DNA from: an uncultured bacterium
Lineage (GTDB): Bacteria; Gemmatimonadota; Gemmatimonadetes; Gemmatimonadales; Gemmatimonadaceae
Direction of reading: 5' to 3'
Assembly (NCBI GenBank): GCA_963978095.1
Contig: CAXBQP010000003.1
Location: forward strand, 1 to 64,000
DNA length: 64,000 bases
Shown here: in pieces, positions 22,619 through 63,448 of the stretch
Position numbering within the stretch: position 1 is the stretch's first letter
How the letters are laid out: the number at the start of each line of letters is the position of its first letter
Position numbers and translations under genes: made by a program
The notes under the pieces: model-generated
The model's input: the letters and a program-made list of their open reading frames with translations, nothing else
The model's database searches: none
Told to the model about the DNA's origin: nothing

Positions 22619-22670
22619 ATAGTATCATATTGAGATTATATAGGGCGTATTAGTACCATATTAGAACTAT
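22619..22670 (+). repeat. Two tandem copies of the 21-bp AT-rich motif
   Basis: ATAGTATCATATTGAGATTAT (22619-39) and TTAGTACCATATTAGAACTAT (22650-70), 31 bp apart. Confidence 0.65.
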
Positions 22671-22679
22671 TTCATCGGA

Positions 22680-23438
22680 ATGCTCATGCGCATCCTCTCG
22701 AGCGGTGTCAGGTTGGGCGCCACCTGGGGCGCCGCCTGGTTCCTGGCGTTCGGCAACACGTCGCCGGCAATCGCCCAGGAGTTGGGGCCCCCTGTCCCCT
22801 CGCTAAAGGCCCCACAGCTCAACAGCTCGGCCACAGGAGAGGTGACGTTGCGCCCGGACCGGGCCACGCTGACGGTAAGCGTGGAAAGTCGAGCGGGCAC
22901 CGCGTCGAAGGCAGCCGGGGAGACTGCGCGACGACAGAAGCAAGTCTTGGACACACTTCGTGCACTGGGAATCGGGATTGATCAGGTCCAGACCGCATCG
23001 CTACAGATCACCCCCGAGTATTCGAACCCCGGACCCGGGCAACGTCAGCGAGTCACCGGGTATCTGGCGATCAGCTCCCTCCGGGTGGAGATCCTGCGGA
23101 TCGAGCAGGTCGGCGCTGTGGTCGACGCCGCGCTTTCCGGGGAGGCTACCAGTATCCAAGAGCTTCGCTTCAGCTCATCCAATGAGGCCGAAGCCAGAAA
23201 ACAGGCGCTGGCGCTCGCTGTATCGAAGGCGCGGGGAGAGGCGGAGGCGATGGCCTCCGCAGCTGGCGGACTTTTGGGTGGTCTCATCGAGCTCAACGCC
23301 CAACCCGACGTCATCCGGATGCGCAGTGCCCCGCCGATGTCGTTCGCCGCGCGCGCTACTACTCCGATGCCAGTGGCTGAGGGAACGATCACCGTGAGCG
23401 CGACTGTAAGTGGTCGCTGGGGATATATCCCCCGATAG
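22680..23438 (+). CDS. SIMPL (DUF541) domain periplasmic protein
   Basis: Signal peptide; GEVTLRPDRATL, QTASLQITPEY, ARKQALALAVSKARGEAEAMA pattern. Confidence 0.88.
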   Translation: MLMRILSSGVRLGATWGAAWFLAFGNTSPAIAQELGPPVPSLKAPQLNSSATGEVTLRPDRATLTVSVESRAGTASKAAGETARRQKQVLDTLRALGIGIDQVQTASLQITPEYSNPGPGQRQRVTGYLAISSLRVEILRIEQVGAVVDAALSGEATSIQELRFSSSNEAEARKQALALAVSKARGEAEAMASAAGGLLGGLIELNAQPDVIRMRSAPPMSFAARATTPMPVAEGTITVSATVSGRWGYIPR

Positions 23439-23475
23439 GGATCATTGCGAGAACGGCTGTTGTGGTGCGGCGGAT

Positions 23476-23491
23476 TGTTCCACGTGAAACA
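23476..23491. promoter_or_regulatory. parS: parS centromere site
   Basis: TGTTCCACGTGAAACA matches the parS consensus TGTTNCACGTGAAACA; 80 bp upstream of parA. Confidence 0.93.
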
Positions 23492-23571
23492 ATCCGCCTT
23501 GCCCTCTCGCGCCACCTCCCGATATGTTGCGGGAGGTCTCTTTGGTCTCACTGCTACCGGAACGCATCGCC

Positions 23572-24363
23572 TTGGCACGAGTCATCGCAATCGCCAACCA
23601 GAAGGGCGGGGTTGGCAAGACAACAACCGCCGTCAACCTCGCCGCGAGTCTCGCTGCCGCCGAGCAACGGGTTCTCCTTGTTGATGGCGATCCCCAGGGG
23701 AATGCCACGAGTGGCATCGGTCTCGAAAAAGAGAGCTACGAGACAACAGTCTATGACGTCCTCCTGGATCCCACGACGATAGCTGCCGCCACGGTACGCG
23801 AGGTGCAGTTCATGCATCTCGACGTCATCCCGGCGACCCCGGATCTGGCGGCAGCGGAAGTTGAGCTGGTGAACCGTGTGGATCGTGAACATTCCATGCG
23901 CCATGCGCTGGCCTCTGTCCGCGACCATTACGACTTCATCCTGATCGACTGCCCCCCCTCGCTTGGGCTCATCACCATCAATATGCTCGCGGCGGCGGAT
24001 TCGCTTCTGATTCCGCTCCAGTGCGAGTATTACGCCCTCGAGGGGCTCTCCCAGCTGCTGAACACAGTCCATCTTGTCCAGCAGGGTGTCAACCCGACGC
24101 TGGCGATTGATGGGGTGTTGTTGACCATGTATGACGCCCGCCTCAACCTGTCCCGTCAGGTCGCGGCCGATGCTCGCGAGTATTTTGGCGCGAAGGTGTT
24201 CCAGGCAGTCGTCCCCCGAAATGTGAGGCTTGCCGAGGCTCCCAGCTTTGGCAAGCCCATCATCCTGTACGATGTCGCGTCCGTTGGCGCACAAGCGTAT
24301 ATGGGAGTCGCCAAGGAACTGATCGAGCGCAACTCCATCATCAGCAAGAACCGCGCGCCGTAA
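23572..24363 (+). CDS. parA: Chromosome partitioning ATPase ParA/Soj
   Basis: [53 protein letters not shown] start at 23572 preferred. Confidence 0.97.
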
Positions 24364-24369
24364 AAACAT

Positions 24370-24398
24370 CGTAAGTCATTATATTACAACAACTTACG
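24370..24398. promoter_or_regulatory. AT-rich palindromic IHF-like element between parA and parB
   Basis: CGTAAGT-cattatattacaaca-ACTTACG; contains TTACAA-caac-TTA resembling WATCAA-N4-TTR. Confidence 0.4.
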
Positions 24399-24417
24399 AA
24401 TACACACGCACATCATC

Positions 24418-25407
24418 ATGTCGACTGAAAAACCGAGACGCCTCGGACGGGGACTTGAAGCGCTTCTCTCCGCGCGTCCTACCCAGGTGCCGGCCGTTCC
24501 CGCAAGTCTGGCTACGCCGACAGCGGCTCCGGTACCACCCGCTGTCCCGACGGCAACGACGGTACCCGTTGAAACGCCGCGCTCCGCACTGCGGTCGCTC
24601 CCGCTTGCGCTGATCCGACCCAATCCCCTGCAGCCACGCAAGGAGTTCAGCGCCGCTGATCTGGCAGACCTGGAAGCGAGCATCCGATCGAACGGCTTGC
24701 TCCAACCGGTGACGGTCCGGGTCGCCGGAGCGGGTTACGAACTGATCGCCGGCGAACGCCGCTTCCGTGCCGTGTCGCGGATCGGCTGGACCGAGATTCC
24801 CGCCATCGTGCGTGGCGCTGCCGAAACAGACGACAAGGCGGCACTCACCCTCGCGCTGGTCGAGAACCTGCAACGCGCAGATCTGAACCCGATCGAAGAA
24901 GGTGAGGGATATCAGCAGCTCATCGCGCAGTTCGCACTCACCCAACAAGAAGTCGCGGATGTGGTCGGCAAGGATCGCTCGACGGTGGCCAACACGATCC
25001 GGTTGTTGGCGCTGCCGACCAGCGTCCGTCGCATGGTACGTGACGGAGAGCTCACCATCGGCCACGCGCGCGCCCTGCTCTCCTTGGGCGATGATCACCG
25101 CATGCTCGAACTCGCCAAGGCGATCATTGCTGAAGGACTCAATGTGCGCGAAGTCGAGCGTCGCGTCCGGGACGCCGGAACAGGGCGCGCCGACTCGGCC
25201 ACGCGCGGTGCCGCGCCGAGAGCAGGCACGGTCCGCCCTCCCGAGGTCAGCCGCATCGAAGAACAACTGCGCAAGCACCTGCAAACGGCGGTCACGATTC
25301 AGCTCGCCGCGAAAGAAAAAGGGGAGATCCGCATCAGCTTCTATTCCTCCGATGACCTGGAGCGCGTGCTCGACCTCGTGCTCGGGGCGGATCGCGAGGC
25401 GCTGTGA
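24418..25407 (+). CDS. parB: Chromosome partitioning protein ParB/Spo0J
   Basis: LGRGLEALL, NPLQPR, IAGERRFRA, ENLQRADLNPIEE, GKDRSTVAN HTH. Confidence 0.97.
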   Translation: MSTEKPRRLGRGLEALLSARPTQVPAVPASLATPTAAPVPPAVPTATTVPVETPRSALRSLPLALIRPNPLQPRKEFSAADLADLEASIRSNGLLQPVTVRVAGAGYELIAGERRFRAVSRIGWTEIPAIVRGAAETDDKAALTLALVENLQRADLNPIEEGEGYQQLIAQFALTQQEVADVVGKDRSTVANTIRLLALPTSVRRMVRDGELTIGHARALLSLGDDHRMLELAKAIIAEGLNVREVERRVRDAGTGRADSATRGAAPRAGTVRPPEVSRIEEQLRKHLQTAVTIQLAAKEKGEIRISFYSSDDLERVLDLVLGADREAL

Positions 25408-25841
25408 GTCCGTCGGTCCGGAGGCGGCGCGACTCCGGCGCGCATCGCCACGGGAATATCTTCTCCCGCGATTCCGGGTCGATGCTGATCCATGTACAAC
25501 GGGAGAGCGGGCTCGCGCATCGCACGCTGGTGCTGCGCCCGTGGCAAGTCCAAGTCCTGCGAGTCCTCGCCTCCCGGAGTTTTCTGGTCGTGCTGACGAT
25601 CGGCCTGTTGAGCTGGGGATACTTTGCCGTGCAAGCCGCTCGGGTGCCCCTGCTGACTCGCCGCATCACGCACCTCGAGCAGGACGGTCAACGATTGGAC
25701 ACGCTGCAACGCACGTTGTCGGATCTGCAAGATCGCTACGCACAGGTCCAGCGGCTCCTGACCACGTCACGGGTGACCACGACTCCCGCTCCCCTCGGTA
25801 CCCCGCGTTCGGCGCCACCATCGCCGAAGAAGAATCCTTAG
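25404..25841 (+). CDS. Single-TM coiled-coil protein upstream of bactofilin
   Basis: Start overlaps parB stop; short cytoplasmic region, one TM helix, heptad-like coiled coil, Pro-rich tail. Confidence 0.7.
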   Translation: MSPSVRRRRDSGAHRHGNIFSRDSGSMLIHVQRESGLAHRTLVLRPWQVQVLRVLASRSFLVVLTIGLLSWGYFAVQAARVPLLTRRITHLEQDGQRLDTLQRTLSDLQDRYAQVQRLLTTSRVTTTPAPLGTPRSAPPSPKKNP

Positions 25842-25853
25842 GAGAATCGACGC

Positions 25854-26258
25854 ATGGCGTTTTTCGGTACAGCACGGGGAACCGACGACGGGCGGAGCGC
25901 AGGCCGCGTGGTGGAAACATCCCTTTCGATCATCGCCGCCGGCATGCGGATCACCGGCGACATCGAAAGTGGTGGTGTCGTCAAGATCGATGGACGAGTG
26001 GAGGGCTCCGTCATCGGGGCGCGGCAGATCCTTCTGGGACGTGGCGGTGCCATTCACGGCAACGTCGAAGCCGACGAAGTAGTCCTTGGAGGCGACGTAC
26101 TGGGCTCCATTCGTGCCACGAACCGGCTCGAGCTGCAGGGAACAGCCACCGTCCATGGGGACATTGACACAAAGTCGATCGTGGTGATGGAAGGCGCGCT
26201 CATCACCGGCCATGTGCGGATGTCAGAGATCGTGGGGAGAGCGATAGCGGCGGGGTGA
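25854..26258 (+). CDS. Bactofilin (polymer-forming cytoskeletal protein)
   Basis: SIIAAGMRITGDI...VKIDGRVEG...VHGDI....IVVMEGALITG beta-helix repeats; AGGAG RBS. Confidence 0.93.
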   Translation: MAFFGTARGTDDGRSAGRVVETSLSIIAAGMRITGDIESGGVVKIDGRVEGSVIGARQILLGRGGAIHGNVEADEVVLGGDVLGSIRATNRLELQGTATVHGDIDTKSIVVMEGALITGHVRMSEIVGRAIAAG

Positions 26259-26411
26259 GCCTGGGAATGGTGTTCGTCAGTTCAACTCCCAACCGTCGCA
26301 AACAGGTTCAAGAAGTACTCCACAGCCGTTTTCTGATTTCCACAAACGGGACCGACGGCACACATTTGTTTATTTTTCGGTAATATCTTACTACGGAATA
26401 ACGATTTACAC

Positions 26412-27458
26412 ATGAAATACGGCATTCGTCGTCTGGTCTTTGTTGGATTTATCAACAGTGTCGCGTTGCTCGCCATGGCGTGCGGAGGAGCGAAGGACAC
26501 GAAGGCACCGGCCACCCCAGGCGCGATCAAGGTCGCGCTCCTGACACCGGGGCCCATTACCGACCAGTCGTGGAACGGTGGTGCCTACGCCGGCTTGATG
26601 CGCATCAAGGACAGCCTGGGCGCTGAGGTCAGCCATATCCAGACCAAGACCCCGGCGGAGTTCGAGGAGAACTTCCGGCAGTACGGCGCCCAGGGCTACA
26701 CCGTCGTGATCGGACATGGCTTCGAGTTTCAGGACGCGGCCAAGCGCGTCGGACCGGAATATCCGAAAACGTTGTACATCACGACGGGCGGCAACACGGC
26801 GGGCCCGAACATCGCGGCGATGTCGTTCGCGTTCGACGAGCCGAGTTATCTCGCCGGGATGGCAGCCGCAGCTGTGACGAAGACGGGAACCATCGGATGC
26901 ATTGGCGGCACGGAGTTGCCTCCCGTGAAATCCAGTTTCGCCGCATTCACGGCCGGGGCACTCGCGGTGAACCCCAAGATCAAGGTCGTGACGGCCTTCA
27001 TCGGCAACTGGGACGATGCGAGCGCGGGCAAGGAGCAGGCGCTCGCGCAGATCGGGCGTGGGGTGGATGTGATCTTCCAGAATGCCGATGCCGCGGGGCT
27101 TGGGGTGTTCCAGGCGGCGAAGGAGGGCAAGGGTGTCTGGGTGATCGGATCGAATGCTGATCAGAACCGGGTCGCGCCAGCCGTCACCCTCGGCAGCGTG
27201 GTGATTGATGTGCCACACGCCTTCCTGGTCATGGCGCGCGAAGTGAAGGGCGGACAGTTCGAACCGCGCGTCATGCGGCTCGACACCAAGACCGATGTGG
27301 TACGTTGGGTTCCGAACCCTGCGGCAGTGCAGGCGATTCCCGCTGCCATGCGGGCACGCGTCGACTCCGTGCAGCAGCGCATGACGGCTGGCGCGTTCGT
27401 CATGCCGACTGGTGTGGAGGCCGCGGCGGTCACACCGTCGACCGGTGGCGCGAAGTGA
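26412..27458 (+). CDS. BMP-family ABC transporter substrate-binding lipoprotein (nucleoside-type)
   Basis: Lipobox AMAC; DQSWN, IGHGFEF, SYLAG, GNWDD, DVIFQ motifs. Confidence 0.9.
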   Translation: MKYGIRRLVFVGFINSVALLAMACGGAKDTKAPATPGAIKVALLTPGPITDQSWNGGAYAGLMRIKDSLGAEVSHIQTKTPAEFEENFRQYGAQGYTVVIGHGFEFQDAAKRVGPEYPKTLYITTGGNTAGPNIAAMSFAFDEPSYLAGMAAAAVTKTGTIGCIGGTELPPVKSSFAAFTAGALAVNPKIKVVTAFIGNWDDASAGKEQALAQIGRGVDVIFQNADAAGLGVFQAAKEGKGVWVIGSNADQNRVAPAVTLGSVVIDVPHAFLVMAREVKGGQFEPRVMRLDTKTDVVRWVPNPAAVQAIPAAMRARVDSVQQRMTAGAFVMPTGVEAAAVTPSTGGAK

Positions 27459-28246
27459 CCACGCAGCCCGGGGGCATTCCGCTCGAGCGGATCGCGCAGG
27501 ACCTCGACGCATTGCTTCGCACGTCGGAGACCCCGGACTACAAGACAGCCCTGAACGGCGTGCAACTGGCGAACCGCACACCGATCACGAAGGTCGCCGC
27601 GGCGGTCGACTGCTCGCGCTTCACCATCGAGCAGACGATCGCGCAGGGCGCGAATCTCCTGCTCGTGCATCACGGACTGTTTTGGGGGGGACTCCAGCCG
27701 TTGACAGGACCGCACCTTGAACGGGTGCGCCTGTTGATCGATCACGACGTGGCCTTGTACGCCGCACATCTCCCGCTGGACGCGCATGAGCGGATCGGGA
27801 ACTCGCGCCTTCTGGCTGGCGCGTTGGGCCTGGAACCCACGGCGGGCTTCGCGCGGCACGAACACATCTTTTGTGGCGTGCGTGGCACGACCACCCTTCG
27901 CACCGCCACGGTGCTCGACCGTTGTCAACGGTTCTCGGCGACCCACGGCGGAACCGCGATCGCGAGTGCCATGCCTGCTGACCGCATGACCAAGCACTGG
28001 GCCATCTGCACGGGGGCAGGGGCGGGACACTCGACGATTGCTGAAGCAGTGGCGCTGGGCGTCGACACGTTGATCGTGGGCGAGGGGCCGCACTGGAGCG
28101 CTGTGGACGCGCCGGAAAAGGGGCTCGTCATCATCTATGCCGGACACTATGCCACCGAAACACTCGGCGTTCGTGCACTCGCCGATCATGTGACCGCGAC
28201 GTTCGGACTCCCGTGGAGCTGGATTTCGGCCCCGACGGGATTGTGA
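27455..28246 (+). CDS. Nif3-like dinuclear metal-centre protein
   Basis: NGVQL, LVHHGLFW, HLPLDAH, GHYATE; GTG start overlaps upstream stop. Confidence 0.92.
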   Translation: MTTQPGGIPLERIAQDLDALLRTSETPDYKTALNGVQLANRTPITKVAAAVDCSRFTIEQTIAQGANLLLVHHGLFWGGLQPLTGPHLERVRLLIDHDVALYAAHLPLDAHERIGNSRLLAGALGLEPTAGFARHEHIFCGVRGTTTLRTATVLDRCQRFSATHGGTAIASAMPADRMTKHWAICTGAGAGHSTIAEAVALGVDTLIVGEGPHWSAVDAPEKGLVIIYAGHYATETLGVRALADHVTATFGLPWSWISAPTGL

Positions 28247-28253
28247 GCCCTTT

Positions 28254-32953: not shown

Positions 32954-35899
32954 TCAGCGTTTGGTCTCGAGCCAGTTGGGCCCAGTCCCGATATCCACAA
33001 CCAGTGGAACATCGAGTTGCACGGCCGTGGTCATCTCGTGATTCACCAAGTCCCGCAGCGTCTCGAGTTCGTCGGGTGGACACTCGAACACGAGTTCATC
33101 GTGTACTTGCAGCAGCATGCGACTCGCGAGGGCGCGTTCCCGCAACGCATGGTGCAGCCGGATCATGGCCACCTTGATCAGGTCAGCGGCCGACCCCTGA
33201 ATCGGTGAGTTCTGTGCGGTCCGCTCACCGAAGGCGCGGATGTTGAAGTTGCGATCCTTGATCTCCGGGATGTACCGACGCCGCTTGAAGATCGTCTCCA
33301 CGTAGCCATTGACCCGCGCTTGTTCGACGGTGGAGTCCAGGAATCTCCGTACGCCGGCGAAGCGCTCGAAGTACGTCTCGATGAACGCCTTGGCCTCGGC
33401 CACTTCGATCTTCAACTGCCGCGACAAGGCGAACGCTCCCTGGCCATAGATCGTCGCGAAGTTGATGGTCTTGGCGCGCGCCCGCATCTCGCTGGTGACC
33501 GCGCCGAGGTCGACCCCGAAGATGATGGCCGCCGTCTGGCGGTGGATGTCGCCGCCGGCCTTGAAGGCATCGACGAAAGCCGGGTCATGCGAGAGGTGCG
33601 CGAGGAGGCGCAGTTCGATCTGCGAGTAGTCGGCCGCGAGCATCGTCCATCCAGGCTCGGGGATGAATCCCTTGCGGATCTCCTTGCCGAGGTCGCGACG
33701 GATCGGAATGTTCTGGAGGTTCGGGTCACTGGAGGCCAGTCGTCCCGTGCTGGCGACATGCTGGTTGAACGAGGTATGGAGCCGCCCGTCACGGGGATTC
33801 ACGAGGACGGGCAGTGTGTCGAGATACGTACTCTCGAGCTTGGCGAGCTCCCGATACTCCATCAACAATGACGGCAACACATGGCCTTCGTCCGCGAGTT
33901 CCGTCAGGACCGACGCGTCCGTACTCGGCCCCGTGGATGTCTTCTTCTTGACGGGGAGCCCGAGTTTCCCGAAGAGGATGGCGCCGAGCTGCTTGTTGGA
34001 GTTGATGTTGAACTCCTCGCCTGCCGCGTCGTAGATCTGCCGTTCGACGCCGCCGCGCTCCCGCGCAAAACGCGTCTTCAGTGAATGGAACCACGGCACG
34101 TCGATCGCGATCCCGTTCCACTCCATCCCCGCCAGGACTTCGACGAGCGGCATCTCGACATCGTGCAACAGCGCATCGGCGCCCGATTCCTTGAGCTTCG
34201 GCTCGAACAATTTCCGGAGACGGAGTGCGATGTCGGCGTCGGCGCAGGAATACGCACAGGCCGCCGCGATCGGCACCTGGTCAAAAGGGATCTGCGCTTT
34301 TCCCTTGCCCGTGAGCTCGTCGTAGCCGGTCATCGCGAGTTGCAGGAACTCGATGGCCAGCGCATCGATGGCATGCGATCGGCGCCCGGGATCGAGCACA
34401 TAGCTCGCGAGCATGGAATCGAAGTCGAGCCCGCGGACATCGACACCGGTCCGCCGCAGCACCAAGAGATCGTACTTCGCGTTGTGCGCGGTCTTCTTGA
34501 CCGATGGATCACCGAGGAGATCCCGCAGCGGTGCCAACTCGGGCGAGAGGATCGACGGAAGATTCGTGACCGTCGCCCCACCCCCCTCCGCGATGGCTCG
34601 CGCGGCGATGCTTCCACCACTCGCGGCAGACCTGGATGATGTCGGGGTCGCAAGCAGGAGGTCGCCCTGGTCGCTCGCCCACGCCGTGTGTGCGAACGGC
34701 AGATAGAACGCTTCTCCTTCCTCGAAGGCGATGGAGAGACTGACGAGGTTCGCGCGCAGCGGGGTGATGATCGGGGGTGCGCCGTCGTCGAGTACTGTTT
34801 CGGTATCGAACGAGACAAAAGGGGCCGTGCGCGCACGCGCGCACAAGGCCACGACCCCCTCGACGGTGTCGACCACGGTGTAGCGCGTCGGGATCGCATC
34901 CGGTACCGCAACAGTGGCGGGCGACGTCCGCTCCGCGGTCGCCGCATCAGCGGTCGCCGATGGCGTGGCACCGGACAGCCCGGCGGTAGTGCCGAGTGCC
35001 TGTGCGGCGGCTTCCTGCGCATTGTTCCGGAACTCGAGCTCGACAAAGAGGTCACGCAACCGATTCCAATCCGGCGTGCTGACCTTGAGCGCGTCGAGGT
35101 CAAGCGTCATCGGCAAATCGTCGCGAATAGTTACTAATTCCTTGGACAGAACCCCGTTGTCCCGGAATTCCTTGAGCGCGTTGCGGGCACGGGTCGGTTC
35201 CACCTCGTCGACGTGGGCGAGGATGTTCTCGAGCGGTCCCCACTTCTCGATCAGGGCCAGGGCGGACTTGTCCCCGATCCCCTTGACCCCGGGAACATTG
35301 TCGCTCGTGTCGCCCAGGAGGGCGAGATAGTCGGTGACGCGCTCAGGGATGACCCCCAGGCGTTCGACCGCGTTGTTGCGATCGTACCATTTCTCGGAGG
35401 TGAAGCCCGGCCGACCATGCCATGGGTTCAGGATCCAGACGCCGTCATCGATCAGCTGAACGAAATCCTTGTCACCCGAGACGATCACGCCGTGGACGCC
35501 CCGGTGGGGCGCTTGGCGGACGAGCGTCCCGATCACGTCGTCGGCCTCATAGTGTTCGAGGCTGAGAATCGGGATCTGCATCGCCGCCAGGATCTGCGAG
35601 ATGCGCTCGACACCGGTGTCGAAATCGGCCTGCATCGCCGGTTCGAGTCGTTCGCGGGTGGCCTTGTACGCCGGATACCGTTCGTGGCGGAAGGACAGGC
35701 CGGCGTCGTGCACCCAGCCGAGGTACTCCGGCTTGTGCTTGTCCATGAGGCGCCGGAGAAAGTCGTAGGCGCCGCGGGCGATCGATGTATTCTCGCCCTT
35801 GGAGTTGATCAGCGGTTGCGCACCGTACGCGAAGAATGCGCGATAGATCATCGCGTAACCGTCGATCAGAAAGAGGCGCGGCGAGGGGGCTGGAGGCAT
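32954..35899 (-). CDS. polA: DNA polymerase I
   Basis: LIDGY, EADDVIGT, GDTSDNVPGV 5'-3' exonuclease; FDTET; TGRLASSDPNLQNIP, ADYSQIELR, AKTINF, LQVHDEL. Confidence 0.98.
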   Translation of the reverse strand: MPPAPSPRLFLIDGYAMIYRAFFAYGAQPLINSKGENTSIARGAYDFLRRLMDKHKPEYLGWVHDAGLSFRHERYPAYKATRERLEPAMQADFDTGVERISQILAAMQIPILSLEHYEADDVIGTLVRQAPHRGVHGVIVSGDKDFVQLIDDGVWILNPWHGRPGFTSEKWYDRNNAVERLGVIPERVTDYLALLGDTSDNVPGVKGIGDKSALALIEKWGPLENILAHVDEVEPTRARNALKEFRDNGVLSKELVTIRDDLPMTLDLDALKVSTPDWNRLRDLFVELEFRNNAQEAAAQALGTTAGLSGATPSATADAATAERTSPATVAVPDAIPTRYTVVDTVEGVVALCARARTAPFVSFDTETVLDDGAPPIITPLRANLVSLSIAFEEGEAFYLPFAHTAWASDQGDLLLATPTSSRSAASGGSIAARAIAEGGGATVTNLPSILSPELAPLRDLLGDPSVKKTAHNAKYDLLVLRRTGVDVRGLDFDSMLASYVLDPGRRSHAIDALAIEFLQLAMTGYDELTGKGKAQIPFDQVPIAAACAYSCADADIALRLRKLFEPKLKESGADALLHDVEMPLVEVLAGMEWNGIAIDVPWFHSLKTRFARERGGVERQIYDAAGEEFNINSNKQLGAILFGKLGLPVKKKTSTGPSTDASVLTELADEGHVLPSLLMEYRELAKLESTYLDTLPVLVNPRDGRLHTSFNQHVASTGRLASSDPNLQNIPIRRDLGKEIRKGFIPEPGWTMLAADYSQIELRLLAHLSHDPAFVDAFKAGGDIHRQTAAIIFGVDLGAVTSEMRARAKTINFATIYGQGAFALSRQLKIEVAEAKAFIETYFERFAGVRRFLDSTVEQARVNGYVETIFKRRRYIPEIKDRNFNIRAFGERTAQNSPIQGSAADLIKVAMIRLHHALRERALASRMLLQVHDELVFECPPDELETLRDLVNHEMTTAVQLDVPLVVDIGTGPNWLETKR
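35117..35137 (-). promoter_or_regulatory. 21-bp AT-rich motif copy inside polA
   Basis: TTAGTAACTATTCGCGACGAT; codons TTA GTA ACT ATT are atypical for this high-GC window. Confidence 0.6.
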
Positions 35900-48700: not shown

Positions 48701-50094
48701 CGCACACCACGCTGCGGGGCGACACGATCGTGGCCATTGCCACGGCCCCCGGCCGTTCGGCAGTGGCCATTGTCCGTTTGAGTGGGCCGCAGGCGGAGGC
48801 GATGGCCGCGCGGGTTGGTGTGTCCCTGCGCCGCTGCGCGCCTCGTGTGGCCACCCGAACGACACTGCATGCCTGTGATGATCCGGCGACGCCACTCGAC
48901 GACGCACTGGTGACACGGTTCCCCGCGCCTCACTCGTACACCGGTGAGACCGTCATCGAATTCGCGACGCACGGCGGGAGCATGGTCCCGGCCGCGGTGT
49001 GCGGCGCGTTGTTGCATGCCGGGGCACGCTTGGCATTGCCCGGGGAGTTCACGGAGCGGGCGGTCCTTGCCGGGAAACTCGATCTGTTGCGCGCCGAAGC
49101 CGTCGCGGACCTGATCGATGCGCGTTCGACCGCCTCACATCGCACGGCCCTGACGCAGCTGGACGGCGCCCTGTCCCGCGCGCTCGACGCCTTGCGTGCG
49201 GCCGTCATCGAACTGGACGCCCTGCTGGCCTACGACATCGATTTTCCCGAGGAGGATGGCGGGCCCGTGCCACGCGCCCGAATCTCCGTCGCGTGCGACG
49301 CCATTGTGGAACGCCTGGAGGCCCTGTTGGCCACGGTACCGGCCGCCGTGCTGGGCCGCGATGGCGTGACGGTGGTGCTCGCCGGCGCGCCGAACGTCGG
49401 CAAGTCGTCCTTGCTCAATGCGCTGGTCGGGGAGCTTCGGGTGATCGTGAGTGAGATCCCCGGCACCACCCGCGACGCCGTGGAGGTGTTGCTCGATCAT
49501 GAGCCGTGGCCGCTCCGATTGGTGGATACGGCCGGACTCCGGGAGACCCAAGACCCCGTGGAGCGGCTCGGCATCGAGGTGAGTGCGCGGTATGTGGCGG
49601 CGGCGCACGTGGTGGTGGTGTGCGGAGAGACGCCGGAGGCGCTGCGCGCGGCGGCGGCGGCGCTGCGCGCCCACACGGCGGCCCCCTTCATCGGTGCGCT
49701 CACGAAGACTGATTTAGTATCAATAAGTTACGATATAACGCCCCTGGCGCCGGATTTCGCGCGCGTCGTGGCGGTGAGCGCGCGCACCGGCGATGGACGG
49801 AGCGCGCTGCTCGCCGCGATCACCGCGGTGATGCACGCGCAGTTGGACGGACGGACGGACGGAGATGGGACGCAGACGCCGCTGCTCACGCGGGCTCGGC
49901 ATCAGTCCGCGATCACGACCGCGCGCGACGAGCTGCGCGCGTTCCGCGCGGCGTGGAGTGCGGGTGCGCTTCCGGCGCCGGTCGCGGCGTCGCACGTACG
50001 CGCGGCGGCTCACGCACTCGAGGAGCTGGTGGGGGCTGTTGATATCGAGGATGTGCTGACGAAGGTCTTCGCCAGTTTCTGCGTCGGGAAGTAG
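48697..50094 (+). CDS. mnmE: tRNA modification GTPase MnmE (TrmE)
   Basis: DTIVAIAT, SYTGE, PGEFTERA, GAPNVGKSS, PGTTRD, DTAG, FCVGK; start either GTG 48655 or CTG 48697. Confidence 0.96.
   Translation: MTHTTLRGDTIVAIATAPGRSAVAIVRLSGPQAEAMAARVGVSLRRCAPRVATRTTLHACDDPATPLDDALVTRFPAPHSYTGETVIEFATHGGSMVPAAVCGALLHAGARLALPGEFTERAVLAGKLDLLRAEAVADLIDARSTASHRTALTQLDGALSRALDALRAAVIELDALLAYDIDFPEEDGGPVPRARISVACDAIVERLEALLATVPAAVLGRDGVTVVLAGAPNVGKSSLLNALVGELRVIVSEIPGTTRDAVEVLLDHEPWPLRLVDTAGLRETQDPVERLGIEVSARYVAAAHVVVVCGETPEALRAAAAALRAHTAAPFIGALTKTDLVSISYDITPLAPDFARVVAVSARTGDGRSALLAAITAVMHAQLDGRTDGDGTQTPLLTRARHQSAITTARDELRAFRAAWSAGALPAPVAASHVRAAAHALEELVGAVDIEDVLTKVFASFCVGK
49714..49734 (+). promoter_or_regulatory. 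21-bp AT-rich motif copy inside mnmE (also matches IHF consensus)
   Basis: TTAGTATCAATAAGTTACGAT; contains TATCAA-TAAG-TTA. Confidence 0.6.
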
Positions 50095-54055: not shown

Positions 54056-55363
54056 ATGCGCATTCCCGTAGACTCGTACCGCTTGCCGAACGGTCTGCTG
54101 GTGACCCTCTCCGAGGATCACTCGGCGCCGATCGTCGCGGTCAACTTGTGGTACCACGTAGGGTCGGCGAACGAACGGGAGGGGCGCACGGGATTCGCCC
54201 ACTTGTTCGAACACATGCTGTTCCAGGGTTCCGCGCATGTGGGGGCCAACGAGCACTTCGAGTTGGTGCAACGCGCCGGGGGAACCCTCAATGGATCCAC
54301 ATGGCTGGATCGCACCAATTATTTCGAGACCGTGCCGTCGAATCATCTGGCAACCGCGCTCTGGCTCGAGGCGGATCGCATGGGCGCCCTCCTGCCCGCC
54401 ATGACGCAGGAGAAACTCGACACGCAGCGTGATGTGGTGAAGAACGAACGCCGTTGGTCGGTGGACAATCAGCCCTATGGGACGTGGTGGGAGCGACTGC
54501 CGGCCCTGTGTTTTCCACCGGAGCATCCCTTCCATCATTCACTGATCGGCTCGATGGAGCACTTGAGCGAGGCGAGTCTCGAGGACATCGCCGAGTTCTT
54601 CCGCACCTGGTACACGCCGGACAACGCCGTGCTGACGATCGCCGGGGATTTCGATCCCGCGGAGGCGCGCGCGCTCGTGACGCAGTACTTCGGCCCCATT
54701 CCGCGTGGCACGGCACGTCCGGCATTGCCGTCGTTCGAGGTGGCGCCGTCGTTCGGCGGGGCGCGTCGCGCGGTGTTCGAGGATGCGGTGGTGTTGCCGC
54801 GCCTCTTCCTGGCGTTTCGCTCACCGGTGTTCGGCTCAGACGGGTACTACGCCGCGAGCGTCTGCGGGGCGATCCTCGGCATGCGGCGCGGGAGCCGACT
54901 CTACCGCGCACTCGTGAGGGAGCAGGAGATCGCGCAGGAGGTGTCGGCGTTCACCTATGATTTGAGCAAGGGGAGCGATCTGCTGGTGATCGATGCGATG
55001 GCGCGCCCGGGTGTCACGCTCGAGCGGCTCGAAGCGGCCGTGGGGGCGGAAGTCGACCGGTTGCATCGTGAGGGCGTGACGGCCGACGAACACACGCGCG
55101 CGCTGGCGCTGATCGAGACCGACCTGATCAGCGCGTTGCAGTCGGCCGGGGAGCGCGCCGACAAATTGTCGCAATTTGCTACTTATTTTGGCGATGCCGC
55201 GTTGCTCAACGACCAGATCGACCACTACCGCGCCGTGACCGTGGAGCAGGTGACGGCGTTCGCGCGCGCACACCTGGGCGCGGCCAATCGGGCCTCGCTC
55301 GTGTATGTCCCGCGTGCGGCCCGAGCGGATGCGGCGGCCGGCCCCGCGGAGGTGCGCGCATGA
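54056..55363 (+). CDS. M16 family Zn peptidase, catalytic subunit
   Basis: GFAHLFEHMLF HxxEH motif, NGST..DRTNYFE, VKNERR, YTPDNA. Confidence 0.94.
   Translation: MRIPVDSYRLPNGLLVTLSEDHSAPIVAVNLWYHVGSANEREGRTGFAHLFEHMLFQGSAHVGANEHFELVQRAGGTLNGSTWLDRTNYFETVPSNHLATALWLEADRMGALLPAMTQEKLDTQRDVVKNERRWSVDNQPYGTWWERLPALCFPPEHPFHHSLIGSMEHLSEASLEDIAEFFRTWYTPDNAVLTIAGDFDPAEARALVTQYFGPIPRGTARPALPSFEVAPSFGGARRAVFEDAVVLPRLFLAFRSPVFGSDGYYAASVCGAILGMRRGSRLYRALVREQEIAQEVSAFTYDLSKGSDLLVIDAMARPGVTLERLEAAVGAEVDRLHREGVTADEHTRALALIETDLISALQSAGERADKLSQFATYFGDAALLNDQIDHYRAVTVEQVTAFARAHLGAANRASLVYVPRAARADAAAGPAEVRA
55165..55185 (-). promoter_or_regulatory. 21-bp AT-rich motif copy inside the M16 peptidase gene
   Basis: Reverse strand TAAGTAGCAAATTGCGACAAT; coding strand uses AAA TTG TCG CAA TTT GCT ACT TAT TTT. 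Confidence 0.6.
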
Positions 55364-58389: not shown

Positions 58390-58791
58390 ATGGACTGCCG
58401 AACGTTTCGCGAGCAGCACCGCGCATATATGGATCATGAGCTGACGGCGCCTGACTTGGCGGCCGTCATGTCGCACATCAGGAGCTGTGGGACCTGCGCC
58501 GCCCGAGACGGAGCCTTGCGTCGCGGGCTTTTGCTCGCGCGGAATCTTCCGCGGATCCACCCCTCGACGGCCTTCCGAGCACGTCTCCAGGCGCGGCTCG
58601 CTGCGGAGCGGCGGATGGTATATTCCGAGCATGGCTCCTTCCCCTCTGAGTGCCCTCAAATCAGCCCTGAAAAGCGGGGCGTTCGAGCCGGCGTATCATT
58701 TCCATGGGGACGAGGATTTCCTGAAGGACAGCTGGATCCGCGACGTGATCGCCCGCGCCACGGACGCAGCCACCCGCGACTTCAATCTTGA
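58390..58791 (+). CDS. zf-HC2 (ZAS) anti-sigma-like protein, possibly truncated
   Basis: MDCRTFREQH..YMDHEL.......HIRSCGTC HxxxCxxC motif; last ~160 nt overlap holA out of frame; no TM helix. Confidence 0.7.
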   Translation: MDCRTFREQHRAYMDHELTAPDLAAVMSHIRSCGTCAARDGALRRGLLLARNLPRIHPSTAFRARLQARLAAERRMVYSEHGSFPSECPQISPEKRGVRAGVSFPWGRGFPEGQLDPRRDRPRHGRSHPRLQS

Positions 58792-59686
58792 AACGCGCCG
58801 CGGCGGCGAGGTAGACGCACGAACGCTGGCCACGGCACTCGACGCGATGCCGATGATGGCCGAACGGCGCGTTCTGGTGGTGCGTGACGTGCCGTCGCTC
58901 AAGAAAGAGGCACGGGGCGTCCTGCTGAAGTACCTCGAGCGACCGTCGCCTGATACCCTGCTGTTGCTGGTGTCACCAGCGGGTGCCAAGGCGGACGCCG
59001 AGCTCAATGCCAAGCTGGTGTCGGTTCCGTTCGATTCCCTCACGGAAGACGCCCTCGTGAAATGGGTGGCGCATCGCGCCGCGCAGATCGATGTGACGAT
59101 CACGCCCTCGGCGGCAGAGTTGCTCTGCAGTGCGGCCGGCAACGATCTCGCCCTGATGGCGGGAGAGCTCGAAAAACTGCGCAACTTCACGAATGGCGCC
59201 GAGATCGACGATGCCGCCATCGCCGCCATCGTGGGCGTCACCGCGGGCGAGACGCTCGGTGATCTTCTGGATGCCGTCGCGCAGCGTGACGGCATGCGCG
59301 GCATCCGGCTCATTGAACCGATCCTGCTCCAACCGAAGACGACCGGCGTGTCGATCGTGATGGCGCTGACGACACAGATGCTGGCTATCGGCTGGGCATT
59401 GGCGGCAAAGGATCGCGGGGTGGCGCAGGGCCGGCTGGAGAGCGAACTGTTCGGGCTGTTGAAGGCGAATCCCTCCTCGATCACCGGTCGGCCGTGGGGG
59501 GAAGCGGTGAAAGTGTGGGTGCGCGCGATGCCCAAGTGGCATGCGGCCGACATCGACCATGCCCTGCATCTGTTGCTGGCGGCAGACCGGGCCCTGAAGG
59601 ATTCCAAGGTGTCGAGCGAGGAGCAGGTGTTGGTGTCGCTCGTTCTGGCACTCGCGGCGGGTGGAAAGCGCCGAGTGGCCGCATGA
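58631..59686 (+). CDS. holA: DNA polymerase III delta subunit
   Basis: PAYHFHGDEDFL, DFN, PMMAERRVLVV, ELEKL, ADRALK; ATG 58631 preceded by TATATT. Confidence 0.9.
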   Translation: MAPSPLSALKSALKSGAFEPAYHFHGDEDFLKDSWIRDVIARATDAATRDFNLETRRGGEVDARTLATALDAMPMMAERRVLVVRDVPSLKKEARGVLLKYLERPSPDTLLLLVSPAGAKADAELNAKLVSVPFDSLTEDALVKWVAHRAAQIDVTITPSAAELLCSAAGNDLALMAGELEKLRNFTNGAEIDDAAIAAIVGVTAGETLGDLLDAVAQRDGMRGIRLIEPILLQPKTTGVSIVMALTTQMLAIGWALAAKDRGVAQGRLESELFGLLKANPSSITGRPWGEAVKVWVRAMPKWHAADIDHALHLLLAADRALKDSKVSSEEQVLVSLVLALAAGGKRRVAA

Positions 59687-59711
59687 GCCCACGCGAACGG
59701 ACAGGACCATC

Positions 59712-60761
59712 ATGAGACTCTGGCAACGGCGACCGATGCGGCACTTGGGTGCCGTCGTGGCGATGACGTGTGTGACGTCGGTGCTGACGGCGCAGACGGG
59801 ATCGCGTCCGACCCCGAGCGATTCGGCGGTATTCCGTCGTGCGGCGCAGATGGTGAATGTGGGGCAGGCGCCGGCGGCCCGCGCGCTGATCGATTCGGTG
59901 ATCACGGCGGCGAAGGACGGTTCGCCGATGCTGGTGGATGGTCTCTACTGGCGTGCGGTGTACTCGGATGCGCCGGATCAGGCGCGACGGGACTACCTCC
60001 GCATCACGGTGGAGTTCGCGCAGTCGCCACGTGCGGAGTGGGCATTGCTGCGACTGGCGCAGCTGGAGTTCTCGCGGGGAGGACGGGCGGCAGCCAAGCG
60101 ACACGTCGATCGACTGCTGCTCGATCACCCGGATGGTGCCACACGGACGCAGGCACAGTACCTGCTCGGCCGTCTCCTGATTGAGGACGGGGCGATGGTG
60201 CGTGGCTGTGCGTCGCTCGCCGAGGCGAAGCAGCGCGCGGCTCCGGGCGAGATCGAGCTCCAGAACCAGATCGCGTACGCACAACGTGCGTGCGGAAGCG
60301 CTGCGATCGCCGCGGACTCCGTCCGGCTGGATTCGTTGCGTGCGGACTCGGTGCGAGCAGAGATGCAGCGTACCGCGGCCGCCGTCGCCACAGCGCCGAA
60401 GAAGGCGAAGGCGGCCGCGGCGCCTACGCCCAAGCCGGAACCGAAACCGGAACCCAAGCCAGAACCAAAACCAGAACCCAAACCGACCATACCACCGGGG
60501 CCACAACCGCCCGCTGTGTCACCGGCCGTATCGGCCAGTGGCAATTGGACGGTACAGCTTGCGGCGTATCAAGTGCTCGGCGACGCCGAGCGGTTGAGCA
60601 CCAAGATGAAGGCCCGCGGCTACGATGTGCGTGTCACGGCCGAGCGTCCGTACCGCGTCCGGATCGGGCGCTTCGAGACGCGCGCCGAGGCCGTCGCGTT
60701 GGTCGCCAAGTTGCAGGCGTTGCAGATCACGGCGATCGTGGCGGAGGCTGAAAAGCCGTGA
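59712..60761 (+). CDS. Exported TPR-like + SPOR domain protein
   Basis: Signal peptide; helical repeats (YLRITVEF..SPRA..ALLRLAQ); (PKPE)n linker; WTVQLAA...YRVRIGRF..RAEA SPOR motif. Confidence 0.85.
   Translation: MRLWQRRPMRHLGAVVAMTCVTSVLTAQTGSRPTPSDSAVFRRAAQMVNVGQAPAARALIDSVITAAKDGSPMLVDGLYWRAVYSDAPDQARRDYLRITVEFAQSPRAEWALLRLAQLEFSRGGRAAAKRHVDRLLLDHPDGATRTQAQYLLGRLLIEDGAMVRGCASLAEAKQRAAPGEIELQNQIAYAQRACGSAAIAADSVRLDSLRADSVRAEMQRTAAAVATAPKKAKAAAAPTPKPEPKPEPKPEPKPEPKPTIPPGPQPPAVSPAVSASGNWTVQLAAYQVLGDAERLSTKMKARGYDVRVTAERPYRVRIGRFETRAEAVALVAKLQALQITAIVAEAEKP
60428..60486 (+). repeat. 12-bp coding repeat encoding a (PKPE)n linker
   Basis: Degenerate CC.AA.CC.GAA units inside the SPOR gene. 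Confidence 0.75.
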
Positions 60762-63448
60762 GCAGGGAGGCCACGCCCTTGATGCAACAGTACCGTGAGA
60801 TCAAGGCGCGGCATCAGCACGCCATCCTGTTCTTCCGGATGGGTGATTTCTACGAGATGTTCTACGAGGACGCGGACGTCGCGTCGCGTGTGCTCGGGCT
60901 GACCCTGACCTCGCGCAACAACGGTGGTGCGACGTCGGTCCCGTTGGCCGGCGTGCCGGTGAAGGCCGCCACCGAGTATCTGCGCCGATTGGTGCAGCAG
61001 GGATTCCGCGTCGCGATCTGCGAACAGGTGGAGGATCCCAAGCTGGCGAAGGGCATCGTCCGGCGTGAGGTCGTCGAGACGATCACGCCTGGTGCTGCGT
61101 TCAGCGATGACCTGCTGGATGGTGCGCGCAACAATTTTCTCTGTGCCGTCCAGGTCGCGGGCGAGTTGACCGGTCTTGCGGCGGTCGATGTGTCGACCGG
61201 CGAATTCCGCCTGGTGACCGCGCGCTCCGGCGATGCGGCGGCGGCGTTGGCCCGGTTGTCGCCGCGTGAGGTGATCACGCCGGCAGGGAATGCGGATGCC
61301 GCGGTCTTGGCGCGCGGGCTGGATGTGTTGACGACCGAGCGCGACGGATGGGAGTTCGAGTCCGCGCTCGCCGAGCAGGCGATGGCCGAGCATTTCGCCG
61401 TGCGCTCACTCGAGGGATTCGGGATCGGTGCCGTGGACGCGGCGGCGGTCGGTGCCGCGGGGGCGTTGTTGCGCTATCTCCGCGAACTGCAGCCGTCGGG
61501 GATCCCGCATCTCGCGCGTCCCATCATCGAGCGGCCCGGCGGCGTCATGCCGCTGGACGACATGACGCGTCGCAACCTCGAGTTGGTGGAGTCCTTGCGT
61601 GGCGGAGACCAGTCCGGGACGCTCTTGGGTGTCCTGGATCGCACGCAGACACCCATGGGCGCCCGGTTGTTGCGACACTGGATCTTGGCGCCACTGACGG
61701 ATGTTGCCGCCATCACCGCACGTCTCGATGCGGTGGATGGGTTGGTGTCCGATGCCCTTGCCCGCGCGGCGTTGCGCAGCGCCCTCGATGGTGTTCGGGA
61801 TGTGGAGCGTCTGGCGGGGAAGGCGGCGGCGGGGCGTGCGAATCCGCGCGATCTGCGAGCGCTCGGCGACTCCCTGGCGCGGCTCCCGGAGGTGGAGCGC
61901 GCCTTGCGCCGTACGCCGCCAGCCGGCGCGCTGGCGGAGATCGTCACCGTGTGGGACTCATGCCCCGATCTCGCGACCGAGATTCAGCGGGTGCTGGTGG
62001 AGCGCCCCGGTACGAGTGTCGGGGAAGGTGAGACGATCGCCTCCGGCGTGGACGGCACGCTCGACGAGTTGCGGGCGATCGCCATCGGCGGCAAGGATGC
62101 GATTGCGGCGATGCAGACCGCCGAGCGTGAGCGCACCGGGATCGCCTCGCTGAAGGTCGGGTACAACCGCGTGTTCGGCTATTTCATCGAAGTCACGAAC
62201 ACGAACGCGCATCTGGTGCCTCCGGATTACCAGCGTCGTCAGACGTTGACCGGCGCGGAGCGGTACATCACGCCGGCGCTGAAGGAGTTCGAGGAGAAGG
62301 TGCTGCATGCGACGGAGCGGATCGAGACGCTCGAGCGGCAGTTGTTCGAGGCGCTGCGGGGTAGGGCCGGGGCACAGATCGGGCGATTGCAGGGGGTGGC
62401 GTCGACGCTCGCGCGTCTGGATGTACTCGGCACGCTCGCGGAAGTGGCGGCGCGTGAGGGGTATGTGCGTCCCGAGGTGCGCGATGGGATGTCGCTCGAG
62501 ATCACCGGTGGGCGCCACCCCGTGGTGGAGCGGATGATGCCGCGCGAGCAGTTCATCCCCAACGACGTGACGCTGACGCCGGATGCGCGGATGATCATCC
62601 TCACCGGTCCGAACATGGCCGGAAAAAGTACCATATTGCGACAAATCGGCCTGCTCGTGCTCATGGCACAGATGGGGAGTTTCGTGCCGGCCACCCGGGC
62701 GGTGGTGGGGATCGCCGATCGCGTCTTCACGCGGGTGGGGGCGAGTGACAATCTGGTGCGCGGGCAATCCACGTTCATGGTGGAGATGTCGGAGACGAGC
62801 GCGATCCTGCACACGGCGACCGCGCGGAGTCTGGTGCTGCTCGACGAGATCGGCCGCGGGACGAGCACATGGGACGGGGTGAGCATCGCGTGGGCGGTGA
62901 GCGAGCATCTGCACGAACAGGTCGGCTGCAAGACCGTGTTCGCGACGCACTATCACGAACTCACGCAGCTCGCCGACGAATTAGTAGCAGTACGAAACTA
63001 TAACGTGGACGTGAAGGAGGTCGGCGAGAAGATCCTCTTCCTCCATCGCTTGAAGCCCGGCGGGGCTGACCGATCGTACGGGATCGAGGTCGGACGGCTC
63101 GCGGGACTGCCGGCTCCGGTGATCGCTCGCGCCCGTTCCCTGCTCGCGTTGCTCGAGAGTGAACAGTTGGCGGAGGCGCTCTCCGGAGCGGGCGCTGCGT
63201 CCGCCCCGCGCGTGCCCCGCGCGGGCGGAAGTGCCGGACCAGGTGCCGTGCGCCACCCCCCGCTCCCGCGGGCCGACCAGCTCGGACTGTTCGCGCCCGC
63301 GGCCGCGCCACATCCCGTGCTCGCACGGCTCCGCGCGTTGCATCCGGACACCATGACGCCGCTCGACGCGCTGACCGTGTTGGCACAGCTCAGTCAAGAG
63401 GCCAAGCGGGACGCGTCCCCGGAAGCGCCCCGGGACGTGGCCGGGTAG
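60758..63448 (+). CDS. mutS: DNA mismatch repair protein MutS
   Basis: TPLMQQY, FFRMGDFYEMF, GRHPVVE, TGPNMAGKST, STFMVEM, DEIGRGTST, SYGIEV, QLGLF clamp-binding motif. Confidence 0.98.
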   Translation: MSREATPLMQQYREIKARHQHAILFFRMGDFYEMFYEDADVASRVLGLTLTSRNNGGATSVPLAGVPVKAATEYLRRLVQQGFRVAICEQVEDPKLAKGIVRREVVETITPGAAFSDDLLDGARNNFLCAVQVAGELTGLAAVDVSTGEFRLVTARSGDAAAALARLSPREVITPAGNADAAVLARGLDVLTTERDGWEFESALAEQAMAEHFAVRSLEGFGIGAVDAAAVGAAGALLRYLRELQPSGIPHLARPIIERPGGVMPLDDMTRRNLELVESLRGGDQSGTLLGVLDRTQTPMGARLLRHWILAPLTDVAAITARLDAVDGLVSDALARAALRSALDGVRDVERLAGKAAAGRANPRDLRALGDSLARLPEVERALRRTPPAGALAEIVTVWDSCPDLATEIQRVLVERPGTSVGEGETIASGVDGTLDELRAIAIGGKDAIAAMQTAERERTGIASLKVGYNRVFGYFIEVTNTNAHLVPPDYQRRQTLTGAERYITPALKEFEEKVLHATERIETLERQLFEALRGRAGAQIGRLQGVASTLARLDVLGTLAEVAAREGYVRPEVRDGMSLEITGGRHPVVERMMPREQFIPNDVTLTPDARMIILTGPNMAGKSTILRQIGLLVLMAQMGSFVPATRAVVGIADRVFTRVGASDNLVRGQSTFMVEMSETSAILHTATARSLVLLDEIGRGTSTWDGVSIAWAVSEHLHEQVGCKTVFATHYHELTQLADELVAVRNYNVDVKEVGEKILFLHRLKPGGADRSYGIEVGRLAGLPAPVIARARSLLALLESEQLAEALSGAGAASAPRVPRAGGSAGPGAVRHPPLPRADQLGLFAPAAAPHPVLARLRALHPDTMTPLDALTVLAQLSQEAKRDASPEAPRDVAG
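62625..62645 (+). promoter_or_regulatory. 21-bp AT-rich motif copy inside mutS (over the Walker A coding region)
   Basis: AAAGTACCATATTGCGACAAA; codons AAA AGT ACC ATA TTG CGA CAA. Confidence 0.6.
62981..63001 (+). promoter_or_regulatory. Second 21-bp motif copy inside mutS
   Basis: TTAGTAGCAGTACGAAACTAT; codons TTA GTA GCA GTA CGA AAC TAT. Confidence 0.6.

Follow-up and report, generated by a model that had tools for sequence, protein, structure and literature searches.

A 21-bp AT-rich palindrome recurs in the 64,000-nucleotide window analysed here, which comes from an uncultured bacterium of the Gemmatimonadaceae (GenBank assembly GCA_963978095.1, contig CAXBQP010000003.1, positions 1 to 64,000), and its copies raise the question of what protein reads them and why most stand inside unrelated genes. 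The original prediction, drawn from the window alone, saw in them the binding site of an unidentified dimeric protein that organises, tethers or protects the origin region. Our analysis supports a selected site of a dimeric protein, but the binder can probably be named: the palindrome is very probably bound by an NrtR-type regulator of these bacteria, which is encoded outside the window and has the motif in its own promoter. More tentatively, we suggest that this NrtR-family operator has been reused as an origin-proximal array with a structural role. Genomes are designated here by G-numbers, and are called NrtR+ or NrtR- according to whether they have an NrtR-family regulator gene; the window is G000:C3:1-64000, in an assembly of 2.98 Mb that is 91% complete.

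The palindrome and its frequency

All seven 21-mers first described match the window in both letters and coordinates. With the pattern as originally drawn, 10 strand-matches at 7 places have at most 2 mismatches, compared with 0.13 expected from 100 shuffles. A further copy noted at 9343 is real, but it is a full-strength site and not the weaker one it was taken for. With relatives included (109 distinct sites), the consensus refines to WTAGT(A/C)NC-N5-GN(T/G)ACTAW; this is a true palindrome, and occurrence on coding versus template strand, which had been part of the earlier argument, is therefore uninformative.

At a threshold of at least 19 bits the assembly holds 10 positions, eight in the window and two at the nrtR locus, and on the contigs other than that of the window no site exceeds 19 bits except at that locus. 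Thirty column-shuffled palindromic matrices, scored in the same way, give a mean of 0.5 genome-wide (maximum 2) and 0.1 in the window. The scoring matrix behind the 19-bit count was trained with the window sites included, and a non-circular matrix was made separately from 18 promoter 21-mers lying right after TTGAC, chosen by position in nrtR orthologues of other genera (21 loci were tried, three of them without TTGAC in range). This independent matrix places the eight window sites and the two sites on contig C29 within the top 11 of 2,975,744 positions, the sole other position being C20:1776. A viral scan gave 15 scattered exact matches, which are uninformative, and two RNA runs gave shares of 0.08-0.09, which speak in neither direction.

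The earlier statement that the motif is neither parS nor NBS stands. A canonical parS begins at 23476, and the same site lies 5' of parA in 28 of 28 loci of the genus, in NrtR+ and NrtR- genomes alike; the assembly has one ParB_N gene. The best NBS match has 2 mismatches, and G000 has no second ParB-family gene that might act as Noc. The motif does resemble ParB/parS in being an origin-proximal palindrome with a GTnnC...GnnAC frame, but it differs in its five-base spacer and WTA flanks, and in that parS is kept in NrtR+ and NrtR- genomes. A reading as variant parS was rejected, the letters differing from the 16-bp TGTTNCACGTGAAACA-type site and both parS and ParB being present separately. In three NrtR- genomes (loci L022, L023 and L024) a different palindrome, of the GTAAAC-N4-GTTTAC type, stands 5' of parA at some 90 bp from parS and might be a replacement operator there. 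When 8 origin regions were searched de novo by a crude method, no multi-copy AT-rich family emerged that could be a dispersed variant of the palindrome in genomes without NrtR.

Selection on the coding copies

Five of the seven copies first described lie, as claimed, within genes, namely polA, mnmE, the first M16 peptidase gene and, twice, mutS, and the pair at 22619 and 22650 is intergenic, 5' of SIMPL-parA-parB. The reported coincidence with A/T-ending codons is also borne out: in the six coding sites, 4-6 of 7 third positions are A or T, compared with 17-19% across each host gene. When the six sites are recoded synonymously with genome codon usage, no recoding reaches the observed score (Table 1); the matrix used in this test included the tested sites, and the independent matrix ranks the same sites separately.

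Comparison of orthologues separates NrtR+ from NrtR- genomes. The polA site (at least 16 bits) is present in 6 of 13 NrtR+ and 0 of 9 NrtR- orthologues, the mnmE site in 5 of 11 aligned NrtR+ and 0 of 9 NrtR- orthologues, and the M16 peptidase site in 4 of 9 and 0 of 1. For mutS the figures are 4 of 10 against 0 of 6 at 62625, and 8 of 10 against 0 of 4 aligned at 62981, where 2 more NrtR- orthologues are gapped. Presence among the NrtR+ orthologues is patchy, and single sites are therefore gained and lost. The Walker A sequence of MutS, KSTILRQI, is identical in the NrtR- genomes G005 and G060, where it is encoded by common codons. At 62981 the residues are LVAVRNY or FVSVRNY, compared with LPGVRNF in the NrtR- orthologues, which suggests that a protein change accompanied this second mutS site. 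The synonymous-site check proposed for polA, mnmE and mutS thus gives rare-codon sites that beat all recodings and are absent from NrtR- orthologues; selection has rewritten codons, and apparently residues too, of these genes to keep a site.

An NrtR-type regulator as the probable binder

The refined matrix reveals two further sites on contig C29, at 17917 and 18729, that flank an open reading frame (ORF) of 234 residues. The encoded protein combines an N-terminal Nudix-like domain with a C-terminal NrtR winged helix, the domain arrangement of the NrtR family. Foldseek searches with its structure model (predicted local distance difference test, pLDDT, 89) return AraR with a template modelling (TM) score of 0.75 and E 1.8e-18, and the NrtR-DNA complex 3gz6 from Shewanella with TM 0.70 and E 7e-15. 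The first C29 site directly abuts TTGACA. The nrtR promoter carries the palindrome in 20 of 20 orthologues of the genus, and among 80 GTDB nrtR loci fetched it lies right behind TTGAC (-35) in all 79 that have enough upstream DNA, a few of which overlap loci already used. Most records of regulator orthologues are titled Gemmatimonadaceae or Gemmatimonadales, and proteins related to the DnaA and DnaN of the window carry the label Gemmatimonadota.

Motif and regulator also occur together. Within the genus, 20 of 30 genomes have the regulator gene, and in the ten that lack it matches stay at background level, save for one good match each in G005 (contig C174) and in G017, which is 61% complete. 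Across the family, in a tally that leaves out G000 and two unpublished genomes, the median number of matches is 4 in 94 genomes with PF21906 (79 of them with at least two) compared with 0 in 48 genomes without it (7 with at least two); reversed-pattern controls average 1.1 and 1.0 per genome in NrtR+ and NrtR- genomes respectively. No site of at least 16 bits is found in 626 kb from the origin regions of ten NrtR- genomes, the maximum being 14.6. Genus g31 (G107, G185, G202, G254) gives no NrtR match in its four genomes; three of the four keep the small clamp-motif gene described below, and three have 2 motif matches each. A recent loss of nrtR or an overlooked gene is possible there.

Conservation over 43 sequences of the clade is 88% for the winged helix, compared with 55% for the Nudix domain. 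The recognition helix reads HKASFRR in 80 of 80 sequences (43 of 43 in the clade set), compared with DKRNFRR in 6 canonical-type copies of the same order, and the wing is GRGRP. In the Nudix domain LPGG has become LPW in 34 of 43 sequences and the catalytic glutamates are gone; DH is changed to RH or RQ, the second pocket arginine is replaced (by A in 29 of 43) and one arginine is retained in 34 of 43. Because the corresponding pocket residues touch the ligand in AraR and NrtR, as described in PMC4666351, the effector switch of the regulator is probably altered or its pocket closed. A basic tail ending in (V/I)R(F/L)(D/E), an R-centred hydrophobic motif, is kept in 80 of 80 sequences. The tail sequence GRRGVRF(D/E)LL, among the last 20 residues, is loosely like the ParA-contacting N-terminal peptide of ParB (RRLGRGLEALL in the ParB of the window), a resemblance only.

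Probable promoter targets and the small clamp-motif protein

The fetched DNA, which is biased towards origins and nrtR loci and whose genes come from our own gene caller, contains 45 intragenic and 60 intergenic sites. A -35 box abuts 17 of the 60 intergenic sites compared with none of the 45 intragenic ones, and 33 of the 45 lie in the 3' half of their gene. The conserved promoter-type targets are nrtR itself, a small gene usually just 3' of nrtR, and the (SIMPL)-parA-parB leader. In the window, a promoter-like TTGAGA-18-TACCAT at 22630-22659 is covered by the pair at 22619 and 22650, which look like ordinary promoter operators. Of the genomes examined, 13 of 14 NrtR+ and 0 of 9 NrtR- ones have a copy of the motif within 0.3-1.2 kb of parS.

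No target in nicotinamide adenine dinucleotide (NAD) synthesis or salvage, or in pentose metabolism, was found, in an assembly in which nadA-D were not individually located. There is no site of at least 8.5 bits near nadE (G000:C5:53.6 kb), and PF04095 (pncB/nadV) was not found in 5 of 5 genomes. A match of 18.7 bits inside pntB (C43:14026) was considered as an NAD target and rejected as noise, being present only in G000 and unconserved in 4 of 4 relatives; in the closed genome G228 the distance between pntB and dnaA is 1.37 Mb. The intragenic host genes share no pathway.

The small target protein has no Pfam match and no usable match in the ESM Atlas. It is found in 26 of 40 genomes of the family compared with 1 weak match among 160 others of the phylum, a tally that includes the unpublished genome G103. 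The pattern Q-x-x-L-P-L occurs in 32 of 37 ORFs 3' of nrtR, and Q115 and L120 are invariant in 46 aligned rows. This end resembles the QLSLPL of Hda, described in PMC12309361 as a tight clamp binder, and the protein is a candidate replisome-binding factor.

Position of the sites on the chromosome

The window is an origin region on the evidence of its gene content (mnmG, SIMPL, parA, parB, polA, dnaN, dnaA, yidC, mnmE and mutS, by NCBIfam and Pfam) and of the cumulative GC skew of contig C3, which has its minimum at ~17 kb; oriC is placed by region only. The position of the palindrome was followed by genome-wide pattern scans, which are independent of which DNA was fetched. Seven well-assembled NrtR+ genomes have 24 matches with at most 1 mismatch, of which 21 are no more than 213 kb away from dnaA or parB, or 13 of 16 when the nrtR-locus sites are removed. 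Thus all four matches lie within 72 kb of dnaA in the closed genome G228, three of three within 65 kb in G145, four of four within 133 kb in G047 and six of seven within 213 kb in G050; in G046 three of three lie within 98 kb of parB, and the single match of G163 is beside parA. The NrtR- genomes G060 and G089 have no match at this stringency genome-wide.

A set of six genomes, in two of which the counts are among the matches listed, extends this picture: of 14 matches in G135 the 13 listed are all on the dnaA contig, between -200 and +299 kb; the 13 matches of G270 divide into 8 on the dnaA contig and 5 on the nrtR contig; and in G077, where the control count is 6, dnaA is near 7 of 15. Coding copies cluster within about 70-300 kb of dnaA, and nrtR itself is 46-97 kb from dnaA in six genomes. 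Restriction to the origin region, as first proposed, therefore holds in well-assembled relatives, with G167 and G242 as exceptions. When 20 matches far from the origin were fetched, 14 scored below 12 bits, two 13.8-14.7 bits and one 17.7 bits (in an NrtR- genome, the background ceiling), and three loci scored 20.8-23.2 bits.

Those three loci merit description. At ~134 kb of G163:C2 (L219:871-2394 and 2394-3071), two sites of 23.2 and 20.8 bits lie in a 507-residue ORF that stands 3' of a second parA gene, the contig being 868 kb long; the likeness of the ORF to ParB is weak (pairwise E 0.018, no Pfam match), and in this single case the sites may belong to a second replicon and its partition locus. 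Lone sites of 20.8 bits off the dnaA contigs are G167:C2:872213 (L217:1513), 154 kb from a ParB-like gene of the same contig, and G047:C4:16720 (L206:1520).

The GC-skew minimum of the window (~17000) is ~28 kb off dnaA and closer to mnmG-parAB, and the picture is similar in G044 and G046; in G050 and G047 the minimum coincides with dnaA. In some lineages oriC may lie away from dnaA.

Features in and outside the window

Coordinates are collected in Table 1. At 156-2144 the window also encodes a protein with a Schlafen group 3 DNA/RNA helicase domain (PF09848), which is possibly defence-related.

Table 1. Palindromic sites and associated features, in window coordinates unless a contig of G000 is given; ranks are those of the independent matrix over the whole assembly
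Feature	Location	Strand	Bits	Rank	Recodings reaching score	Remarks
Site	9343..9363		23.3	6	0/4000	in amidohydrolase/TolB-like gene (7248-10595, minus)
Site 1 of pair	22619..22639		25.7	10		over predicted -35 box, 5' of SIMPL-parA-parB
Site 2 of pair	22650..22670		23.0	8		over predicted -10 box
SIMPL (DUF541), parA, parB	22680..25407	+				probable regulated operon (Pfam, NCBIfam)
Canonical parS	23476..23491					in parA leader; sole one in assembly
Site	35117..35137		23.6	4	0/4000	in polA, peptide LVTIRDD
dnaN and dnaA	43272..46016	-				origin landmarks (NCBIfam; GC skew)
Site	49714..49734		27.6	3	0/4000	in mnmE, peptide LVSISYD (variable loop)
Site	55165..55185		22.5	9	0/4000	in first M16 peptidase gene
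Site	62625..62645		19.2	11	0/4000	in mutS, Walker A peptide KSTILRQ
Site	62981..63001		26.5	2	0/4000	in mutS, peptide LVAVRNY
nrtR-type gene	G000:C29:17946-18650 (L068:7946-8650)					outside window; NrtR_WHD PF21906, E 6.8e-22
Small target gene	G000:C29:18772-19140 (L068:8772-9140)					122 residues; end QIELPLSA; same palindrome at promoter

Proposed role of the array

The account that we favour, a plausible one that falls short of probable, is that in one NrtR lineage the metabolite switch has been lost and the protein now covers a few hundred kb on either side of or around oriC by way of sites within coding sequence, docked by its tail and coupled to the expression of parAB and a clamp-binding factor. 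NrtR-family dimers of the Gemmatimonadaceae clade would bind the palindrome as operator, each winged helix reading one half-site and the GRGRP wing touching the A/T flanks, as structures of the family suggest. To judge from the position of the sites, the dimer would repress three kinds of promoter, those of nrtR, the small clamp-motif gene and SIMPL-parA-parB. The remaining copies, in unrelated genes no further than about 70-300 kb from oriC, would be an array of docking sites, dependent on position, by which the protein is loaded onto the origin domain. Its most likely part there would be to help ParABS, in an accessory way, to organise or anchor the domain, and the conserved basic (V/I)R(F/L)(D/E) tail would bind a partner. 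A DivIVA homologue is encoded at G000:C25:9624-10013, and another in each of 4 of 4 relatives tested.

Several observations weigh against this account. G242 has 21 matches (control 0) on 15 of ~50 contigs, only 3 of them on the dnaA contig, a distribution without tight origin confinement, and G167 has 0 of 2 matches near dnaA, keeping only the nrtR promoter site in the 140 kb fetched. About 4-20 sites per genome are few for a macrodomain. Eight of the 94 NrtR+ genomes have no match at all, seven of the 48 NrtR- genomes have at least two, and G250 among these has 7 with no gene found at 90% completeness; presence and absence track clades, so that the counts are non-independent. The system is absent from whole groups (0 of 21 genomes in genus g18) and is therefore dispensable. 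DivIVA, as a partner for the tail, is non-discriminating, being present in 5 of 5 genomes, NrtR+ and NrtR- alike. Co-folding of the small protein with DnaN gives weak support to a replisome link, scoring 0.46 compared with 0.00 for the best control, in a range that is more often wrong than right absent prior likelihood; at least 59% of contacts are common to the runs and the partner pLDDT is at least 62. Of 157 solved complexes 116 reach this score range, as do 2 of 215 mismatches; at values of at most 0.60 are 18 of the 157 and both mismatches. The DnaN score may reflect likeness to solved clamp-peptide structures. As a separate observation, the array of G242 is possibly far wider, nearer to a distribution of the nucleoid-occlusion type.

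Alternative explanations

The strongest alternative, though we think it unlikely, is that the intragenic copies are decoys for the same binder and have no structural role. Origin-proximal decoys would double first at replication, soak up the autoregulated repressor and so pulse the expression of parA-parB and the clamp-motif protein. Such titration would account for the indifference to host gene, the turnover of sites, the clustering at the origin, the autoregulation and the altered effector pocket, and the conserved promoter targets do have segregation and probably replisome functions. However, nrtR and the promoters to be derepressed also lie near the origin and double nearly simultaneously with the decoys, the conserved C-terminal tail is left unexplained, and no precedent for the NrtR family was found in the open literature.

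An ordinary repressor regulon, acting by promoter occlusion at parAB and as a roadblock in polA, mutS and mnmE, with clustering that merely follows gene location, appears improbable. NrtR proteins are promoter-acting repressors (PMC2330246), a predicted promoter is overlapped at 22630-22659, and the best-conserved coding sites are in mutS and polA. Against this, outside the window the >19-bit sites of G000 are confined to the nrtR locus, and the intragenic sites tend to the 3' half of genes and abut no -35 box. Their hosts also include what we take, by recognition from sequence in several cases, to be dctA, moeB, argG, a Rieske oxygenase, a short-chain dehydrogenase/reductase, M16 and M1 peptidases and an amidohydrolase.

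Less probable again is that the dispersed sites are bound, and nrtR is controlled as well, by another co-inherited protein, perhaps the small one or a regulator not recognised as such. The literal NrtR core GT-N7-AC is not found in the motif, and three g31 genomes have 2 matches each with no NrtR match, in a genus that keeps the small gene. Yet the palindrome occupies the autoregulatory position in 79 of 79 loci alongside an invariant recognition helix, its 21-bp geometry agrees with the box of the related NadQ (PMC5343134), and the small protein has no Pfam match. Finally, chance AT-rich patches, a codon artefact or a variant parS, suspicions invited by the training of the first matrices on the window sites themselves, we count as refuted by the independent matrix, the shuffles, the recoding test, the site-free NrtR- orthologues, and the canonical parS and single ParB present apart from the motif.

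Comparison with known systems

Site-specific chromosome-domain systems are known from few model bacteria. The present case adds a protein with its site, two effectors probably downstream of it and lineages that have lost the system naturally, all in a phylum that is widespread but little studied, and suggests the reuse of a metabolic regulator to mark or manage the origin region. Even under titration or a plain regulon, an NrtR regulon would be tied to segregation and replication instead of NAD, for which no description was found. If the structural role is real, this would be a chromosome organiser built from a Nudix-winged-helix regulator, a kind of system of which the open literature yielded no published example, nor any paper on NrtR in Gemmatimonadota, on NrtR sites within genes or on a link between NrtR and the origin.

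The closest relatives by structure are NrtR from Shewanella (PDB 3gz5/3gz6) and AraR from Bacteroides (PDB 5bs6), with which the regulator shares the Nudix-like and winged-helix architecture, the 21-bp palindrome (as symmetric count matrices) and an operator over its own promoter. Most of the NrtR boxes so far published are palindromes of 21 bp at promoters, with a GT-N7-AC core in most but not all groups (main text of PMC2330246). Compared with the boxes of that text, the core here is GT-N11-AC with C8 and G14: GT at 4-5 and AC at 17-18 are conserved, and positions 6-7 vary. The clade also differs in the HKASFRR helix, in LPW for LPGG, in the lost catalytic glutamates and in having no NAD or pentose target that we found, and its many intragenic, origin-proximal sites contrast with the published ones, which lie in promoter regions (PMC2330246, same text). 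The regulator is NrtR by fold and autoregulation, yet no NAD regulon was found for it and its operator departs from the GT-N7-AC core. NadQ (COG4111; Agrobacterium, PDB 7q91-7q94) has a related winged helix and a box, ttATRCTCannntGAGYATaa (PMC5343134), of the same length that shares TTA...CA-nnn-TG...TAA; its inner bases are unlike, AraR and NrtR rank above it in structure, and it controls nadABC, no such target being found here. Explanation by a known regulator motif thus goes as far as the 21-bp geometry of the NrtR and NadQ boxes, which were not among the systems first compared, and the intragenic, origin-clustered copies are not explained by the family.

SlmA/SBS, Noc/NBS and MatP/matS provide examples of intragenic palindromes limited to part of the chromosome, and SlmA is itself a TetR regulator fold that has been put to new use in chromosome biology, although in all three the sequence and fold are unlike those described here. 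The ram sites of RacA are dispersed and independent of their host genes. RacA/ram in Bacillus subtilis and MaoP/maoS in Escherichia coli bind the origin-proximal part of the chromosome at specific sequences (PMC7174722). It is these two systems that the palindrome most resembles in logic, though not in membership, having multiple origin-proximal sites that are independent of the host gene (with G167 and G242 as exceptions), whereas its probable binder has an NrtR fold and would also be an autoregulated repressor.

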